This document shows, piece after piece, positions 27,639 through 62,921 of a stretch of 64,000 nucleotides of DNA. The position numbers and the translations under genes are program-made. Positions within the stretch are counted from its first letter, which is position 1. The number at the start of each line of letters is the position of its first letter. Source of the DNA: Escherichia coli (lineage in GTDB: Bacteria > Pseudomonadota > Gammaproteobacteria > Enterobacterales > Enterobacteriaceae); NCBI RefSeq assembly GCF_003334335.1, contig NZ_QOWQ01000001.1; one strand, given 5' to 3'. Under the pieces are notes generated by a model. The model made no database searches, was not told the DNA's origin, and worked only from the letters and a program-made list of their open reading frames with translations.

Positions 27639-29156
27639 ATGTCTGAACAACACGCACAGGGCGCTGACGCGGTAGTCGATCTTAACAATGAACTGAAAAC
27701 GCGTCGTGAGAAGCTGGCGAACCTGCGCGAGCAGGGGATTGCCTTCCCGAACGATTTCCGTCGCGATCATACCTCTGACCAATTGCACGCAGAATTCGAC
27801 GGCAAAGAGAACGAAGAACTGGAAGCGCTGAACATCGAAGTCGCCGTTGCTGGCCGCATGATGACCCGTCGTATTATGGGTAAAGCGTCTTTCGTTACCC
27901 TGCAGGACGTTGGCGGTCGCATTCAGCTGTACGTTGCCCGTGACGATCTCCCGGAAGGCGTTTATAACGAGCAGTTCAAAAAATGGGACCTCGGCGACAT
28001 CCTCGGCGCGAAAGGTAAGCTGTTCAAAACCAAAACCGGCGAACTGTCTATCCACTGCACCGAGTTGCGTCTGCTGACCAAAGCACTGCGTCCGCTGCCG
28101 GATAAATTCCACGGCTTGCAGGATCAGGAAGCGCGCTATCGTCAGCGTTATCTCGATCTCATCTCCAACGATGAATCCCGCAACACCTTTAAAGTGCGCT
28201 CGCAGATCCTCTCTGGTATTCGCCAGTTCATGGTGAACCGCGGCTTTATGGAAGTTGAAACGCCGATGATGCAGGTGATCCCTGGCGGTGCCGCTGCGCG
28301 TCCGTTTATCACCCACCATAACGCGCTGGATCTCGACATGTACCTGCGTATCGCGCCGGAACTGTACCTCAAGCGTCTGGTGGTTGGTGGCTTCGAGCGT
28401 GTATTCGAAATCAACCGTAACTTCCGTAACGAAGGTATTTCCGTACGTCATAACCCAGAGTTCACCATGATGGAACTCTACATGGCTTACGCAGATTACA
28501 AAGATCTGATCGAGCTGACCGAATCGCTGTTCCGTACTCTGGCACAGGATATTCTCGGTAAGACGGAAGTGACCTACGGCGACGTGACGCTGGACTTCGG
28601 TAAACCGTTCGAAAAACTGACCATGCGTGAAGCGATCAAGAAATATCGCCCGGAAACCGACATGGCGGATCTGGACAACTTCGACTCTGCGAAAGCAATT
28701 GCTGAATCTATCGGCATCCACGTTGAGAAGAGCTGGGGTCTGGGCCGTATCGTTACCGAGATCTTCGAAGAAGTGGCAGAAGCACATCTGATTCAGCCGA
28801 CCTTCATTACTGAATATCCGGCAGAAGTTTCTCCGCTGGCGCGTCGTAACGACGTTAACCCGGAAATCACAGACCGCTTTGAGTTCTTCATTGGTGGTCG
28901 TGAAATCGGTAACGGCTTTAGCGAGCTGAATGACGCGGAAGATCAGGCGCAACGCTTCCTGGATCAGGTTGCCGCGAAAGACGCAGGTGACGACGAAGCG
29001 ATGTTCTACGATGAAGATTACGTCACCGCACTGGAACATGGCTTACCGCCGACAGCAGGTCTGGGAATTGGTATCGACCGTATGGTAATGCTGTTCACCA
29101 ACAGCCATACCATCCGCGACGTTATTCTGTTCCCGGCGATGCGTCCGGTAAAATAA
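27639..29156 (+). CDS. lysS: Lysine--tRNA ligase (constitutive, class II)
   Basis: 505-aa ORF starting 9 nt after the prfB stop. Confidence 0.97.
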
Positions 29157-29174
29157 GCATTACGTTATGCTCAC

Positions 29175-29201
29175 AACCCCGGCAAATGTCGGGGTTTTTT
29201 T
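29175..29201 (+). terminator. Rho-independent terminator of prfB-lysS; its T-run overlaps the idi stop codon
   Basis: AACCCCG-N8-CGGGGTT followed by TTTTTTT. Confidence 0.8.
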
Positions 29202-29748
29202 ATTTAAGCTGGGTAAATGCAGATAATCGTTTTCTGGCTTCGCGATTTGTCGCCTGCATCACCATCCACGGACTGAACGCCCACGGCGTGGCATCAATAC
29301 CGTGTAATACATCTGCTAAATCACACCATTGATAATCCATCACTTCATCATCATTGATCTGTAACGCACTAGTGGAGCGTGCGGCAAATACCGGACACAC
29401 TTCATTTTCCACAATGCCACTCGGATCGGTGGCGCGGTAGCGAAAGTCAGGATAGATAGATTCAGGAGGCGTAATTTCCACGCCAAGCTCATAACGGCAA
29501 CGGCGGATCACTGCGTCTTCGTTGCTTTCTCCCAGTTGTGGGTGCCCACAAACCGAGTTAGTCCACACGCCAGGCCATGCTTTTTTGCTCAGTGCGCGGC
29601 GGGTAACTAATAATTGTCCTTTGGCATTAAACAGCCAACTGGAGAACGCGAGATGTAAGCGGGTGTCTGCCGTGTGTGCGGCATACTTTTCCAGCGTACC
29701 CGTGGGAACTCCCTGTGCATTCAATAAAATGACGTGTTCCGTTTGCAT
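29200..29748 (-). CDS. idi: Isopentenyl-diphosphate delta-isomerase (type 1, Nudix fold)
   Basis: 182-aa ORF with ...[30 protein letters not shown]... Confidence 0.95.
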
Positions 29749-29870
29749 AATTTCTCACATGTAATTCTGATCACTCATCATTATAGATAATTGAAGAGTG
29801 AAATGATTAACCAAGTGAGCGTTTATCGACAACCGCCCGTTTTGAGCGGATGCCGACAGGTAAAAACCAT

Positions 29871-29996
29871 TTAAAAAAGTAGCATCATATATTTGAAGCG
29901 ACTTTCAATGGCCATTGCAACACAGTCAGAAATGACAGGAATAGAGAGAGTAAAAAGCAACAACAGACTGAATATAGCGCGCATTAAAAAATTCAT
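29871..29996 (-). CDS. yqfG: 41-codon small hydrophobic protein, translationally abutted to the uacT stop (below the ORF-track cutoff)
   Basis: The minus strand reads ATG AAT TTT TTA ATG ... TAA, which translates to MNFLMRAIFSLLLLFTLSIPVISDCVAMAIESRFKYMMLLF. The ATG at 29996 is 1 nt after the uacT TAA (30000-29998). The gene name is recalled from the K-12 small-protein list. Confidence 0.55.
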   Translation of the reverse strand: MNFLMRAIFSLLLLFTLSIPVISDCVAMAIESRFKYMMLLF

Positions 29997-29997
29997 A

Positions 29998-31446
29998 TTA
30001 TTCTCCATGCTCATTTTTCTTCAGCTTGCGCATCAGAAGCCACATACGTACTGTCCTGACTTTTAAATCTTTATCAGAGACGGATTCCTTCACCAGGTCA
30101 GCATGATGCTGATAGCCATTAAAGAAGACGTTCAGCACAACGGCGCTAAGGGTTGCGAGCATAATGCCGCTATGTAGCAGCGGTTGCAGTACGGCCGGTA
30201 ACTTAGAAAAGAAATCGTGAGAGAGCGTCGGAGTCATGCCAACGCCGAGACTGATCGCCACAATATAGAGGTTGTAACGGTTGGTGGTGTAGTTACAGCG
30301 CGACAGAATTCGAATCCCTGTCGCCAGTACCATGCCGAACATCACTAGACCAGCGCCGCCCAGCACAAATTGCGGAATGGAGGCTACCAGCACCGCCATT
30401 TTTGGCACCATGCCAAACAGGATTAATATAATTCCCGAAGAAATACACACCCAGCGGCTATGAACGCGCGTCACGCTAACCAGGCCAACGTTTTGAGAAA
30501 ATGACGTGTGGGGGAAGCTGTTAAACGTGCCGCCTATCATTGTCCCTACGCCATCGACACGCAGCCCGCGAATAATATCGTGCGAAGAGAGTTTACGACC
30601 GACTATTTCACCCAGTGCCAGGAACATCCCCATCGACTCGATAAACACGATGATTAACACGGCAGTCATGGTCAGAATGGAAACGGGATCGAAAATCGGC
30701 ATACCAAACGACATCGGCGTAACAATCGCAAACCATGAAGCATCATGTAGCCCGGATAAATTGACTTCATTCATCATCCACGAAAGTAAAAAGCCAAATA
30801 CAATCCCCAGTAATACGGCGACGTTGGACATAAATCCTTTCGCATAGCGAGTAATGAGCAAGATAAAAATTAAGACGGCAAAGGAGATACCTAAATAAAC
30901 GGGATTACCATATTGCGGATTCCCTTTACCTCCGGCGGCCCAGTCAATACCCACCTGAATGATGCTAAGCCCGATAGAAGTAATAACCACACCGGTAACC
31001 AGTGGCGGGAATAAAGGCATCAAGCGACCGATAAGTGGCGCTAATAATGTGGTGATAAAACCCGCGGCGATAGTGGCACCAAATATCCCCAGCAGGCCGA
31101 TATCCGGGTTCATCCCAATGGCTATCATTGGTGTTACAGCAGCAAAGGTCACCGACATAATCACCGGCAGGCGGATCCCCATAAAGCGGCCGATACCGAT
31201 ACATTGCAATAATGTGACGATCCCGCAGCAAAAGAGATCCGAGCTAATGAGCATCGCAATAGCTTCTTTTGAGAGGCCCAGTCGGTCACCAATCATAAGA
31301 GGAACAGCGACTGCACCTGCGTACATGACAAGGACGTGTTGCAGACCGAGTATGATCAGCTTTCCTGGTGATAATATGCGGTCAACCTCATCAGTTGGGC
31401 GGTCTTGCCCAGAAGATGAGGGAAGTTGGGAATCTATGGCGCTCAT
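29998..31446 (-). CDS. uacT: Uric acid:H+ symporter, NAT/NCS2 family (YgfU)
   Basis: ORF 29998..31575 trimmed to ATG 31446, preceded by AAGGAGA. Sequence MSAIDSQLPSSSGQDRPTDE..., 482 aa. NAT signature FSQNVGLVSVTRVHSR. Confidence 0.93.
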   Translation of the reverse strand: MSAIDSQLPSSSGQDRPTDEVDRILSPGKLIILGLQHVLVMYAGAVAVPLMIGDRLGLSKEAIAMLISSDLFCCGIVTLLQCIGIGRFMGIRLPVIMSVTFAAVTPMIAIGMNPDIGLLGIFGATIAAGFITTLLAPLIGRLMPLFPPLVTGVVITSIGLSIIQVGIDWAAGGKGNPQYGNPVYLGISFAVLIFILLITRYAKGFMSNVAVLLGIVFGFLLSWMMNEVNLSGLHDASWFAIVTPMSFGMPIFDPVSILTMTAVLIIVFIESMGMFLALGEIVGRKLSSHDIIRGLRVDGVGTMIGGTFNSFPHTSFSQNVGLVSVTRVHSRWVCISSGIILILFGMVPKMAVLVASIPQFVLGGAGLVMFGMVLATGIRILSRCNYTTNRYNLYIVAISLGVGMTPTLSHDFFSKLPAVLQPLLHSGIMLATLSAVVLNVFFNGYQHHADLVKESVSDKDLKVRTVRMWLLMRKLKKNEHGE

Positions 31447-31477
31447 CAGTGTTTCTCCTTTCGCCCGCCAGAGTAAA

Positions 31478-31493
31478 AAGCAACCGTTTACGT
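31478..31493. promoter_or_regulatory. PurR-box-like palindrome in the uacT leader
   Basis: AAGCAACCGTTTACGT (minus strand ACGTAAACGGTTGCTT) matches ACGCAAACGTTTGCGT at 13/16, with the central CG kept. It lies between the candidate promoter and the uacT SD. Confidence 0.4.
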
Positions 31494-31514
31494 TAATGAA
31501 ACTGTCTAAACACA

Positions 31515-31530
31515 TGCTCGTGGAGTGCCA
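31515..31530 (-). promoter_or_regulatory. Candidate sigma54 (-24/-12) promoter reading into uacT
   Basis: The minus strand reads CTGGCAC-TCCAC-GAGCA. The -24 element is perfect and GG-N10-GC spacing is exact. The -12 flank is GA instead of TT. The -12 GC is about 70 nt upstream of the ATG. Confidence 0.35.
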
Positions 31531-31641
31531 GTTTTTGCGAGGAAGGGGAGTTAGAGACAGGAATTGCGGAGGCAATCACATAATCGTGGTTAAACCACGA
31601 AAATGAGAAGAGAACCTGACAATGGAATTATCTGTAATTTT

Positions 31642-31653
31642 CTCATATTGATA
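31642..31653 (+). promoter_or_regulatory. Conserved 12-mer box CTCATATTGATA, copy 1 of 3
   Basis: Exact match to 56860-56871 (+) and 62677-62688 (-). The extended match to the 56852 copy is GTAATT(TT)CTCATATTGATAT. Confidence 0.4.
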
Positions 31654-31881
31654 TTTCATTAATCATTCTGGCATGTCGCACTCTCGCATTTAATCGTTTT
31701 TATCTGGATAGCGCTCTTTTGATCGGCAATGTTGAAATAATGAAAGCGGCATAGATTGAGGGGCAATAATTTGAACTCAGTCGCAAAATTATAATTAAAA
31801 CGGTCATGCTACCTAATATATGCCCGTTTATTGCATCGCGAAATTTGAGAAGACATAACTCATTAAATGAAAGGGATGCAA

Positions 31882-33801
31882 ATGAATAAGTTTATTGCTG
31901 CTGAAGCTGCGGAATGTATAGGCTGTCATGCTTGTGAAATTGCCTGTGCGGTGGCACACAATCAAGAAAACTGGCCGCTGAGTCACAGTGACTTTCGACC
32001 GCGTATCCACGTTGTAGGGAAAGGCCAGGCTGCGAATCCGGTGGCCTGCCATCACTGCAACAATGCCCCTTGCGTTACGGCTTGTCCGGTTAATGCTCTG
32101 ACTTTCCAGTCCGATAGCGTACAACTGGACGAGCAAAAATGTATTGGTTGTAAAAGATGCGCAATCGCTTGCCCCTTTGGCGTCGTTGAGATGGTCGATA
32201 CGATTGCGCAGAAATGCGACCTTTGTAACCAGCGCAGTTCCGGCACGCAAGCCTGTATTGAAGTTTGCCCAACACAGGCGTTACGACTGATGGACGATAA
32301 AGGGTTGCAGCAGATAAAGGTGGCCCGCCAGCGCAAAACGGCAGCAGGAAAAGCGTCATCAGACGCTCAGCCATCTCGCAGTGCAGCGTTGCTCCCCGTT
32401 AACTCGCGTAAAGGCGCAGATAAAATTTCAGCGAGTGAACGGAAAACCCACTTTGGCGAAATATATTGCGGGCTGGATCCACAACAAGCGACTTATGAGA
32501 GTGACCGCTGTGTTTATTGTGCCGAAAAAGCTAACTGCAACTGGCATTGCCCGCTGCATAACGCTATTCCGGATTACATCCGTCTGGTACAGGAAGGAAA
32601 GATTATTGAAGCGGCAGAACTTTGCCACCAGACCAGTTCCTTACCAGAAATTTGCGGCAGGGTATGTCCACAGGACCGTCTTTGTGAAGGCGCATGTACT
32701 TTGAAAGATCACTCGGGCGCAGTCTCTATCGGTAATCTGGAACGCTACATCACCGATACCGCGCTGGCGATGGGCTGGCGTCCCGATGTCAGCAAAGTTG
32801 TTCCCCGTAGCGAAAAAGTGGCGGTGATTGGCGCTGGGCCTGCAGGGTTAGGGTGTGCTGATATTCTGGCGCGCGCAGGAGTTCAGGTCGATGTCTTTGA
32901 TCGCCATCCAGAAATTGGCGGTATGCTGACTTTTGGCATTCCTCCTTTCAAACTCGATAAAACGGTATTAAGCCAGCGGCGAGAGATATTCACCGCAATG
33001 GGAATCGACTTTCATCTTAACTGTGAAATTGGCCGCGATATTACCTTTAGCGATTTAACTTCTGAATATGATGCAGTTTTCATCGGCGTGGGGACTTACG
33101 GGATGATGCGAGCAGATCTGCCGCATGAAGATGCGCCCGGTGTCATTCAGGCTCTACCGTTCCTGACTGCCCATACCCGCCAGCTCATGGGATTGCCGGA
33201 GTCTGAAGAGTATCCGCTGACGGACGTGGAAGGTAAGCGAGTCGTGGTATTGGGCGGTGGCGATACGACAATGGATTGTTTGCGGACTTCCATCCGCCTC
33301 AATGCCGCCAGCGTGACCTGCGCGTATCGTCGTGATGAAGTCAGTATGCCGGGCTCGCGCAAAGAGGTGGTTAATGCGCGCGAGGAAGGTGTCGAGTTTC
33401 AGTTCAATGTTCAACCGCAATATATCGCTTGTGACGAAGATGGGCGTTTAACTGCGGTGGGCCTGATTCGTACCGCCATGGGTGAGCCGGGGCCGGATGG
33501 TCGCCGTCGTCCTCGTCCGGTAGCGGGTTCAGAGTTTGAATTGCCCGCCGATGTTCTGATTATGGCCTTTGGTTTCCAGGCGCATGCCATGCCGTGGTTG
33601 CAGGGCAGCGGAATTAAACTCGATAAATGGGGCCTGATTCAAACCGGTGACGTCGGGTATTTACCTACCCAGACGCATCTGAAAAAAGTCTTTGCTGGTG
33701 GTGATGCAGTTCATGGCGCGGATCTGGTTGTCACTGCAATGGCCGCAGGAAGGCAGGCGGCGCGCGATATGTTAACTCTGTTTGATACGAAGGCATCGTG
33801 A
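31882..33801 (+). CDS. ygfT: Fused 4x[4Fe-4S] ferredoxin / GltD-like NAD(P)H flavin oxidoreductase (AegA paralogue)
   Basis: ORF 31867..33801 trimmed to [18 protein letters not shown] (639 aa). It has four CxxCxxCxxxCP-type motifs, then [13 protein letters not shown]...[15 protein letters not shown], then [14 protein letters not shown] and [13 protein letters not shown]. Confidence 0.92.
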
Positions 33802-34289
33802 TGAAATCGTTAATTATCGTTAATCCGGCTGACTGTATTGGCTGCCGTACTTGTGAAGTAGCCTGTGTGGTCGCTCACCCTTCAGAACAGGAGTTGAATG
33901 CCGATGTCTTTTTACCCCGGCTGAAGGTACAGCGACTGGACAGCATCAGTGCGCCGGTGATGTGCCATCAGTGTGAAAACGCCCCTTGTGTTGGCGCTTG
34001 CCCCGTGGGGGCGCTGACGATGGGCGAGCAGGTGGTGCAGACCAATTCTGCCCGTTGTATTGGCTGTCAGAGTTGCGTCAGTGCGTGCCCGTTTGGAATG
34101 ATCACCATTCAGTCGTTGCCGGGGGATACCCGACAACAAATTGTGAAATGCGATCTCTGTGAACAGCGGGAAGAGGGGCCAGCCTGCGTTGAATCTTGCC
34201 CAACACAGGCGCTGCAGTTGCTTACTGAAAGAGAACTCAGGCGAGTCCGCCAGCAGCGTATTGTTGCCAGCGGTGAGAATCCTCTCTGA
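33801..34289 (+). CDS. ygfS: 4x[4Fe-4S] ferredoxin-type protein (HydN-like)
   Basis: ATG 33801 overlaps the ygfT TGA (TGATG). The 162 aa are colinear with residues 1-160 of YgfT ([11 protein letters not shown] / [14 protein letters not shown] / [12 protein letters not shown] / CDLCEQ...CVESCP). Confidence 0.92.
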
Positions 34290-34295
34290 AAGAAA

Positions 34296-34319
34296 TCTCC
34301 GCGCTGAAAGGCGCGGAGA
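34296..34319. terminator. Bidirectional hairpin between convergent ygfS and ghxQ
   Basis: TCTCCGCGC-tgaaag-GCGCGGAGA. Confidence 0.65.
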
Positions 34320-34324
34320 ATCTA

Positions 34325-46920: not shown

Positions 46921-47051
46921 GGTGCTAAATGAGAATTAAAATCACTCCTGAAAATTATTATTGCCAGCCCATTTATCAATTTTTCTCTTTTCTCAAAATC
47001 AGTGATTCCTTATCATTATGATAATGAGTGCCGGAAGGATTAAATATTTGA

Positions 47052-56748: not shown

Positions 56749-56764
56749 ACGAAAACGTTTGGCT
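56749..56764. promoter_or_regulatory. PurR-box-like palindrome in the ygeW/ygeV divergent region
   Basis: ACGAAAACGTTTGGCT matches ACGCAAACGTTTGCGT at 13/16; the core AAACGTTT is intact. Confidence 0.4.
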
Positions 56765-56859
56765 TTTTTTATCGCGTTATTTATTTGCTGCTAAGTATCA
56801 GAAATAAGATAAAGGGGCAGGCTATCTCTCTTCAGTTTGATAAACTCACCGCCGTAATT

Positions 56860-56871
56860 CTCATATTGATA
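56860..56871 (+). promoter_or_regulatory. Conserved 12-mer box CTCATATTGATA, copy 2 of 3
   Basis: Exact match to 31642-31653 and 62677-62688. It is followed by a TGATAT...TGATATC direct repeat. Confidence 0.4.
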
Positions 56872-62676: not shown

Positions 62677-62688
62677 TATCAATATGAG
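62677..62688 (-). promoter_or_regulatory. Conserved 12-mer box CTCATATTGATA, copy 3 of 3 (read on the minus strand)
   Basis: The plus strand reads TATCAATATGAG. It overlaps the perfect 12-bp palindrome TGATACGTATCA (62670-62681) and is centred about 105 bp upstream of the -24 element of the xdhA candidate promoter. Confidence 0.4.
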
Positions 62689-62921
62689 TGGCGATAAAAT
62701 CAATGTGATAAATTGGGATTATTACGCATCAGGATGGGAAATAGGGTAAAAAGTCAGGAAGTTCGATACCTCTACAGCGAATATTTTGCTGATGATACTT
62801 CCCTTTGCCAAATGAAATTAACCTCTTTCTCTATTACCACGTTTTTCCAGAAGCAAGAGATTGGGTATCAAGAGGCTGGCTGCTATGATAAGGCGTCTTG
62901 TTTTTTAAGCGAGGAAAGATT

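Follow-up and report, generated by a model that had tools for sequence, protein, structure and literature searches.

How the urate/H+ symporter gene uacT is transcribed in Escherichia coli is the question raised by the spacer between uacT and the divergently oriented ygfT. This spacer, 435 bp in length, was analysed within a 64,000-nt stretch of E. coli DNA (contig NZ_QOWQ01000001.1; hereafter the window) that holds the whole purine/urate cluster, comprising xdhABC, ygeV, ygeW through arcC, yqeBC, mocA, ygfK-ssnA-ygfM-xdhD, xanQ-guaD-ghxQ and ygfST. The answer proposed here is a sigma-54 promoter of uacT, activated by YgeV through an upstream 12-mer and carrying a PurR operator in its leader; for this model as a whole a probability of about 0.6 is estimated. 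The elements on which it is built, and the genes that they serve, are as follows.

31531..31515, minus strand: candidate sigma-54 promoter of uacT, CTGGCACTCCACGAGCA, made up of C-TGGCAC (-24), the five-base spacer TCCAC and GAGCA (-12 region), with A instead of T at -14
31503..31505 (about 31504), minus strand: uacT transcription start as predicted from sigma-54 promoter geometry, which places it 12 nt past the C of the -12 (31516)
31653..31642, minus strand: 12-mer TATCAATATGAG, candidate YgeV enhancer site with core ATCA-N3-TGA, common to the uacT and ygfT promoters
31493..31478, minus strand: PurR-type operator candidate ACGTAAACGGTTGCTT, at about +12..+27 of the predicted transcript
31446 to 29998, minus strand: uacT (urate/H+ symporter), RefSeq start
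From 31882, plus strand: ygfT (formate-dependent uric acid utilisation protein)

An initial annotation of the spacer had named four elements, namely a sigma-54-type motif, a PurR-like box, a palindrome and the 12-mer, and all four were found on the minus strand where it had placed them, to within one base. For comparison with published data, the K-12 (U00096.2) coordinate equals 3060835 minus the window position, a mapping that was checked on two published PurR motifs. Of 5426 complete E. coli genomes, 5331 matched a 701-bp query from around the spacer at 95-100% identity. Strain 200112 (NZ_CM128591.1 3955162-3956639) carries an IS1A element between ygfT and uacT, and there the query is split in two pieces across 1478 bp.

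Conservation of the candidate uacT promoter

The candidate promoter has GG at -24 and GC at -12 with canonical spacing; the range first given for it (31515-31530) had the sequence right and omitted the leading C. To follow it across species, uacT loci with a divergent ygfT were taken from E. ruysiae, E. whittamii, Pseudocitrobacter cyperus, Serratia sp. Ag1 and one Atlantibacter genome, and the resulting alignment held 12 sequences from five lineages. A pattern scan of metagenomes contributed contig L095, which is related to Serratia sp. Ag1, as well as two more haplotypes of the Escherichia clade; new diversity came only from L095, L129, L133 and L140, the remaining matches being mostly E. 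coli plus unrelated chance matches. Variation was also assessed in 24 haplotypes, in which 26% of spacer positions, taken as the background, were variable.

Between genera, the spacer alignment was near random outside a few conserved blocks, and the longest invariant stretch of the spacer proved to be formed by the -24 and -12 blocks. The pattern AAAACTGGCAY-N5-RAGCATG, which begins AAAACTGGCA(C/T), was unchanged in 12/12 sequences from the five lineages, and the -24/-12 blocks were invariant in E. coli, E. ruysiae, E. whittamii, two more Escherichia-clade contigs, Pseudocitrobacter, Serratia sp. Ag1, L095 and Atlantibacter. The five bases between the blocks were free to vary (TCCAC, CCCAC, TCCCT, TTTCT), and the flanks diverged as well. 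Conservation of the two blocks around a free spacer is the signature expected of a functional sigma-54 promoter and thus supports the uacT promoter. The non-canonical -12 (RAGCAT, with A at -14) was itself conserved across genera, and an AAGCA -12 has an in vivo precedent in site IS16, located in paaY, among the sigma-54 sites mapped by chromatin immunoprecipitation and sequencing (ChIP-seq; Bonocora 2015, PMC4591121).

The motif was found upstream of uacT in 5/5 genome loci with the divergent ygfT-uacT arrangement. It was missing, together with ygfT, from L005 and L006:2930-3000 (Citrobacter amalonaticus and Citrobacter sp.), loci in which uacT stands behind another permease gene with a GC-rich hairpin about 70 bp upstream, so that the promoter travels with the ygfT-uacT arrangement and not with uacT. 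The invariance also runs past the GC of the -12 to CATG (window 31513-31515). In E. coli the ATG at 31513-31515 is in frame with uacT, 23 codons upstream; this frame is not preserved in other species.

The position of the promoter bears on the start of uacT. The open reading frame track offers a 43-codon N-terminal extension from a TTG at 31575, within which the promoter lies, and the initial annotation had taken this as a reason to prefer the shorter start at 31446. That start matches RefSeq, and the extension is spurious: an in-frame TGA one codon 5' of the ATG in E. ruysiae, together with frame-breaking indels in other species, rules out the long N-terminus of UacT. The 5' untranslated region, counted from the predicted start, would be about 58 nt long and includes the following translation signals.

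31460..31455 and 31446..31444, minus strand: uacT Shine-Dalgarno AAGGAG and ATG (RefSeq start), with the ATGAGCGCCAT block and the Shine-Dalgarno conserved

An RNA element in the leader was also considered and was ruled out by an Rfam scan of 29000-35000, in which nothing relevant was found, and by the lack of significant structure in the predicted leader RNA (z +1.17).

The 12-mer, the CRP-like site and the choice of polymerase

The 12-mer had been singled out in the initial annotation as conserved, and this could be extended: it was conserved across genera in the ygfT/uacT spacer, carried 0 substitutions in the 24 haplotypes and recurred at the other sigma-54 promoters of the cluster. With at most one mismatch, 5 matches were found in the window against 0.14 expected, a count reached in 0/100 shuffles. 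The copies define a family TATCA(A/T)NNTGA(G/T), with the common core ATCA-N3-TGA(T/G), that precedes each of the cluster's sigma-54 promoters by 112-215 bp, measured to the promoter centre. The copies outside the ygfT/uacT spacer are

56860-56871: exact copy in the ygeV/ygeW spacer
62677-62688: exact copy upstream of xdhA
56831-56842 and 62698-62709: weaker second copies, TATCAAACTGAA and AATCAATGTGAT, adjoining the exact copies at ygeV/ygeW and xdhA
47011-47022: TATCATTATGAT in the mocA/ygfK spacer, an independent match of a matrix made from the other copies

and the distances from copy to sigma-54 promoter centre are

xdhA: 112 and 133 bp
ygeW: 186 and 215 bp
ygfK: 183 bp
uacT: 125 bp
ygfT: 180 bp

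YgeV, which is encoded in the window, has a PAS domain, a sigma-54-interaction domain (AAA+, Sigma54_activat) and a Fis-type helix-turn-helix domain (HTH_8). Membership of the YgeV iModulon has been published for both uacT and ygfT, and lowered ygfT expression has been reported in a ygeV mutant; under standard conditions there is almost no uacT RNA, with counts near zero. On the simplest interpretation, the 12-mer would be a YgeV enhancer common to both divergent promoters. Adjoining the 12-mer is a second block.

31659..31671, minus strand: second conserved block, CCAGAATGATTAA

The block beside the 12-mer (CCAGAATGATT) was kept across genera, with CA-AATGA invariant, and CCAGAATGATTAA had no variable position among the 24 haplotypes; no convincing counterpart of it was found at the other promoters of the cluster. 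One metagenome contig, L160 (coverage about 2x), carries a 13-bp deletion of exactly ATATCAATATGAG, which includes the 12-mer and aligns to 31641-31653; this could be a genuine regulatory deletion or an assembly error.

For ygfT, no convincing promoter had been recognized in the initial annotation, which had overlooked a published ChIP-seq site on the plus strand.

31819-31835, plus strand: ygfT sigma-54 binding site TATGCCCGTTTATTGCA, site OS32 of Bonocora 2015 (PMC4591121)

The OS32 peak has its centre at 3029005, 36 bp from ygfT, and a fold above threshold of 3 (Bonocora 2015, PMC4591121). With a matrix score of 6.8 bits, the ygfT site combines a poor -24 with a canonical -12 and in this respect mirrors the uacT site; its -12, TTGCAT, was invariant across genera.

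Between the 12-mer and the uacT promoter, the spacer holds a conserved CRP-like site and a palindrome that adjoins it.

31580..31565, minus strand: CRP-like site TGTGA-TTGCCT-CCGCA, with its centre at about -68.5 relative to the predicted uacT start
31584-31600: perfect 8+1+8 palindrome TCGTGGTT-T-AACCACGA, E. coli-specific

The TGTGA of the CRP-like site was invariant in 12/12 sequences, and its right half, nCnCA, was present in 4/5 lineages (Atlantibacter having CCGCG). Genomic systematic evolution of ligands by exponential enrichment (SELEX) with CRP names the ygfT<>ygfU spacer, and glucose repression has been reported for the cluster, as has a Crp site between ygeV and ygeW. CRP may exert catabolite control, or it may bend the DNA instead of IHF; no match to the IHF site WATCAANNNNTTR was found between enhancer and promoter, the sole match with at most one mismatch overlapping the PurR box by chance. 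The palindrome, read as CGTGGTT-T-AACCACG at 31599..31585, is centred about 62-65 bp upstream of TGGCAC and had been listed in the initial annotation. It was rejected as a regulator site: a spacer of 435 bp is expected to hold about 0.19 perfect palindromes of this kind, so that its occurrence is not improbable; variants with at most two mismatches were no commoner than chance (5 against 2.08 expected); the arms were not preserved in E. ruysiae, E. whittamii, L129 and L140, where GTTTAAC alone was constant; and 3/15 of its positions were variable among haplotypes, about the background rate.

Several observations weigh against the sigma-54 promoter of uacT. The bare pattern is not above chance: the window holds 4 instances of TGGCAC-N7-GCW where 1.78 are expected, and 10/100 shuffles reach this number. 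Scored with a matrix derived from the 135 sites of the Bonocora 2015 ChIP-seq study (PMC4591121), the uacT site reached 5.47 bits, ranking 188 of 127,968 window positions, and was outscored by all 135 sites (minimum 6.83, median 14.4 bits). This low score is due to motif positions 13 (-15) and 14 (-14), at which T predominates: the G of the uacT site at 13 is shared by 5/135 sites and its A at 14 by 1/135. No sigma-54 ChIP-seq peak lies within 300 bp of K-12 3029304-3029320 in Tables 1 and 2 or the low-stringency Table S2 of that study, which covered a single growth condition (M9, mid-log) and took as its premise that the holoenzyme sits on its promoters under all conditions. The method resolves peaks 140-160 bp apart, yet here it detected only the ygfT site, 320 bp from the uacT site. 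RpoN genomic SELEX names ygeV/ygeW and not ygfT/uacT, and neither a mapped transcription start nor rpoN-mutant data for uacT were found in the literature searched. A Reg-Seq preprint covered uacT and ygfT but gives no results on either gene in the main text or supplementary material searched. The missing peak reflects either very low occupancy without inducing factors or a site that is not used, and the former would fit the weak -12.

If the site is not used, TGGCAC...AGCA would be inactive as a sigma-54 promoter, the conserved block would belong to another protein, and uacT would be transcribed by sigma-70 polymerase, for example in a CRP-dependent manner. Such a reading draws on the absence of a peak at either stringency, the absence of a SELEX entry and the score under all known sites, as well as on the CRP-like site 35 bp upstream of the -24 element in a spacer named by CRP SELEX. 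It is opposed by the nature of the conserved part, which is exactly the GG and the GC, at a distance of ten base pairs and with variable bases in between, by the sigma-54 binding of the regulon's four other promoters and by the co-variation of uacT with the YgeV iModulon. A promoter scan found no sigma-70-like promoter, with no -35/-10 pair, on the uacT strand, and a CRP-like centre at -68.5 is unfit for class I or class II spacing to any visible -10. This alternative is considered improbable. Weighing the cross-genus conservation above the absent ChIP-seq peak, we regard the sigma-54 promoter of uacT as probably real; the proposal of the initial annotation gains from this conservation, from the YgeV iModulon and from the recurring 12-mer, and it is weakened by the missing ChIP-seq peak and SELEX listing.

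The PurR-type box in the uacT leader

The leader box ACGTAAACGGTTGCTT matches the PurR consensus ACGCAAACGTTTGCGT at 13/16 positions, and the window holds 2 matches to this consensus with at most three mismatches against 0.48 expected. With a PurR matrix made from the 26 sites of a chromatin immunoprecipitation and microarray (ChIP-chip) study (Cho 2011, PMC3159470), the box scored 19.12 bits, the best match in the 64 kb and one without an equal in 30 shuffled windows. This value falls within the leave-one-out range of the 26 ChIP-chip sites themselves (8.8-24.9 bits, median about 19) and exceeds the scores of gcvT, a known operator, and of the ygfK site with its ChIP support. Each base at which the box departs from the consensus has a counterpart among genuine operators, T4 being found in tsx, purB and purR, G10 in purE, and T15 in purM, codB and xanP. 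The box was identical in E. ruysiae and E. whittamii, with an AGG variant (18.8 bits) in the more distant Escherichia-clade contig L140; its core GTAAACGGTTGCTT was constant in four Escherichia-clade lineages, while the flanks varied, and 1/16 of its positions was variable among the 24 haplotypes. Separate boxes were found in other genera, namely a 19.1-bit PurR box in Atlantibacter (L009:2753-2768), between the enhancer element and the uacT sigma-54 promoter, and boxes of 12.6 and 14.8 bits upstream of a uacT-like gene in Edwardsiella (L010:2697-2712 and L011:2672-2687). This distribution across genera suggests site turnover.

PurR has been located in this cluster in vivo. ChIP-chip signals were reported at ygfT and at ygfK, the former as a region at 3,028,215-3,029,251, corresponding to window 31584-32620, with a log2 ratio of 2.08 with adenine, which was assigned to ygfT-ygfS through a motif inside ygfT (Cho 2011, PMC3159470).

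32159..32174, minus strand: PurR motif GGGCAAGCGATTGCGC inside ygfT, 13.94 bits, in coding sequence near the centre of the ChIP-chip region

The same sequence is found in E. ruysiae, E. whittamii and Pseudocitrobacter. A further PurR-like box, ACGAAAACGTTTGGCT (17.3 bits), occupies 56749-56764, where it separates the ygeW sigma-54 promoter from the 12-mer copies of the ygeV/ygeW spacer; it is not among the ChIP-chip regions of Cho 2011.

The case for PurR at the leader box has to be set against several facts that tell the other way. The box is missing in Pseudocitrobacter and Serratia sp. Ag1. Within E. coli, a G3->A allele (window 31491) lowers it by 5.6 bits to 13.4; this allele is estimated to occur in about 20% of complete genomes of the species, from the 1046 of 5316 with two mismatches in a 36-mer, as checked in one of them, APEC O2-211 (L203:510). 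The box also lies 91 bp beyond the edge of the ChIP-chip region, which a strong second PurR site there should have widened. The G3->A polymorphism offers a natural pair of alleles on which PurR control could be tested.

These facts are what would be expected if the leader box were a functionless, lineage-specific match and PurR bound in vivo only the ygfT-internal motif at 32159-32174, and perhaps other sites of the ChIP region, without controlling uacT; repression of a catabolic importer when purines are plentiful would moreover have no obvious logic. Against this, the leader box scores higher than the motif to which the authors assigned the region (19.1 versus 13.9 bits), it is less variable than the 26% background of the spacer, and independent boxes stand upstream of uacT in Atlantibacter and Edwardsiella. 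The region edges in the Cho 2011 table are imprecise, with the genuine codB, fabB and yhhQ motifs at the very edge, and the procedure of the authors excluded motifs outside called regions, so that the leader box could not have been reported. A functionless box is accordingly taken seriously, at a little under even chances. Another LacI/GalR-family repressor with an AAACG/CGTTT core (GalR/GalS-like or CytR-like) could in principle read the box in place of PurR, given that its left half, CGTAAAC, is also like GalR-type half-sites; the right half GGTTGCTT is of the PurR type, however, every departure from the consensus is known in genuine PurR operators, and no LacI-family gene is encoded in the cluster, which makes this reading highly improbable.

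That PurR itself functions at the leader box is, from these comparisons, a tentative proposal, to which we give not quite even odds; no link between PurR and uacT was found in the literature searched. What stands of the initial annotation is the 13/16 match, now joined by the top matrix score, and the placement of the box between the predicted start (about 31504) and the Shine-Dalgarno; its role is called into doubt by the absence outside Escherichia, the weakening by G3->A and the position outside the ChIP-chip region.

Together, these elements lead to the following picture. Sigma-54 polymerase would transcribe uacT from 31531..31515, with initiation predicted near 31504. YgeV probably activates uacT and would do so by binding TATCAATATGAG about 125 bp upstream, and the same element, about 180 bp upstream of the ygfT sigma-54 promoter, would serve as one enhancer for both genes, with the conserved CRP-like site placed between this enhancer and the uacT promoter. 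If the leader box is occupied by PurR together with hypoxanthine or guanine, open-complex formation, promoter escape or early elongation would be blocked. In a bolder version, the RAGCAT class of -12 would keep closed-complex occupancy below ChIP detection, holoenzyme binding would need inducing conditions (recruitment by YgeV or bending by CRP), and PurR at +12..+27 would gate a sigma-54 promoter, the first such case; we consider this version unlikely. If it were true, PurR gating would tie urate import to the purine-salvage signal.

Known systems and meaning for urate degradation

The closest relatives of the uacT promoter are the sigma-54 promoters of xdhA, ygeW, ygfK and ygfT (sites OS29-OS32 of Bonocora 2015), which share with it the cluster, the YgeV iModulon, the -24/-12 layout and TATCA(A/T)TATGA(G/T) 112-215 bp upstream. 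Unlike uacT, these four are sigma-54-bound in vivo, with scores of 14.3-15.7 bits for xdhA, ygeW and ygfK and 6.8 for ygfT, as compared with 5.5 bits, A at -14 and no peak for uacT. In its arrangement the ygfT/uacT spacer resembles hycA/hypA (FhlA) and zraP/zraSR (ZraR), where back-to-back sigma-54 promoters have activator sites between them. Those pairs, with promoters about 130-160 bp apart, give resolved twin ChIP-seq peaks (Bonocora 2015, PMC4591121), whereas ygfT/uacT has a peak on the ygfT side only, a wider distance between promoters (296 bp) and an activator site that is predicted.

The nearest parallels to the leader box are purB and the autoregulated purR, in which a 16-bp PurR operator likewise follows the start site and acts on elongating or escaping polymerase; in purB it lies far inside the transcript, at +242. 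The PurR roadblock at purB was reportedly described by He and Zalkin in 1992. The uacT box differs from both in being a predicted site, in serving a sigma-54 and not a sigma-70 promoter, and in its position at +12..+27, near enough to disturb the open complex.

Among transporters, the PurR-repressed xanP, yieG/adeP, yjcD/ghxP, codB and tsx (Cho 2011) are similar to uacT in pairing an NCS2-family, purine-related permease with a high-scoring PurR box by the promoter. For these genes there is ChIP-chip occupancy together with purR-dependent expression (Cho 2011, PMC3159470), whereas the uacT box is known from sequence; furthermore, uacT serves catabolism and not salvage.

The uacT promoter and the PurR box are thus additions to known types, the one a sigma-54 promoter of the YgeV regulon and the other a candidate PurR operator. 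A sigma-54 promoter of uacT with an upstream 12-mer is not described in the literature searched, and no paper containing the 12-mer or the other motif sequences was found there. Our understanding of how sigma-54 or PurR work is unchanged by these findings, which are conceptually ordinary and fill in the wiring of a known urate-degradation regulon. The cluster is nevertheless of medical interest, as gut bacteria lower host urate; the regulation of anaerobic urate degradation in E. coli is barely mapped. If the model is right, it would explain why uacT co-varies with the YgeV iModulon despite having no recorded sigma-54 peak, and it would mean that ChIP-seq catalogues miss conserved sigma-54 promoters with a weak -12. 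It would also give the urate importer a concrete promoter, offer a candidate site at which the orphan activator YgeV could bind at all five promoters of its regulon, and link this regulon to PurR and CRP.

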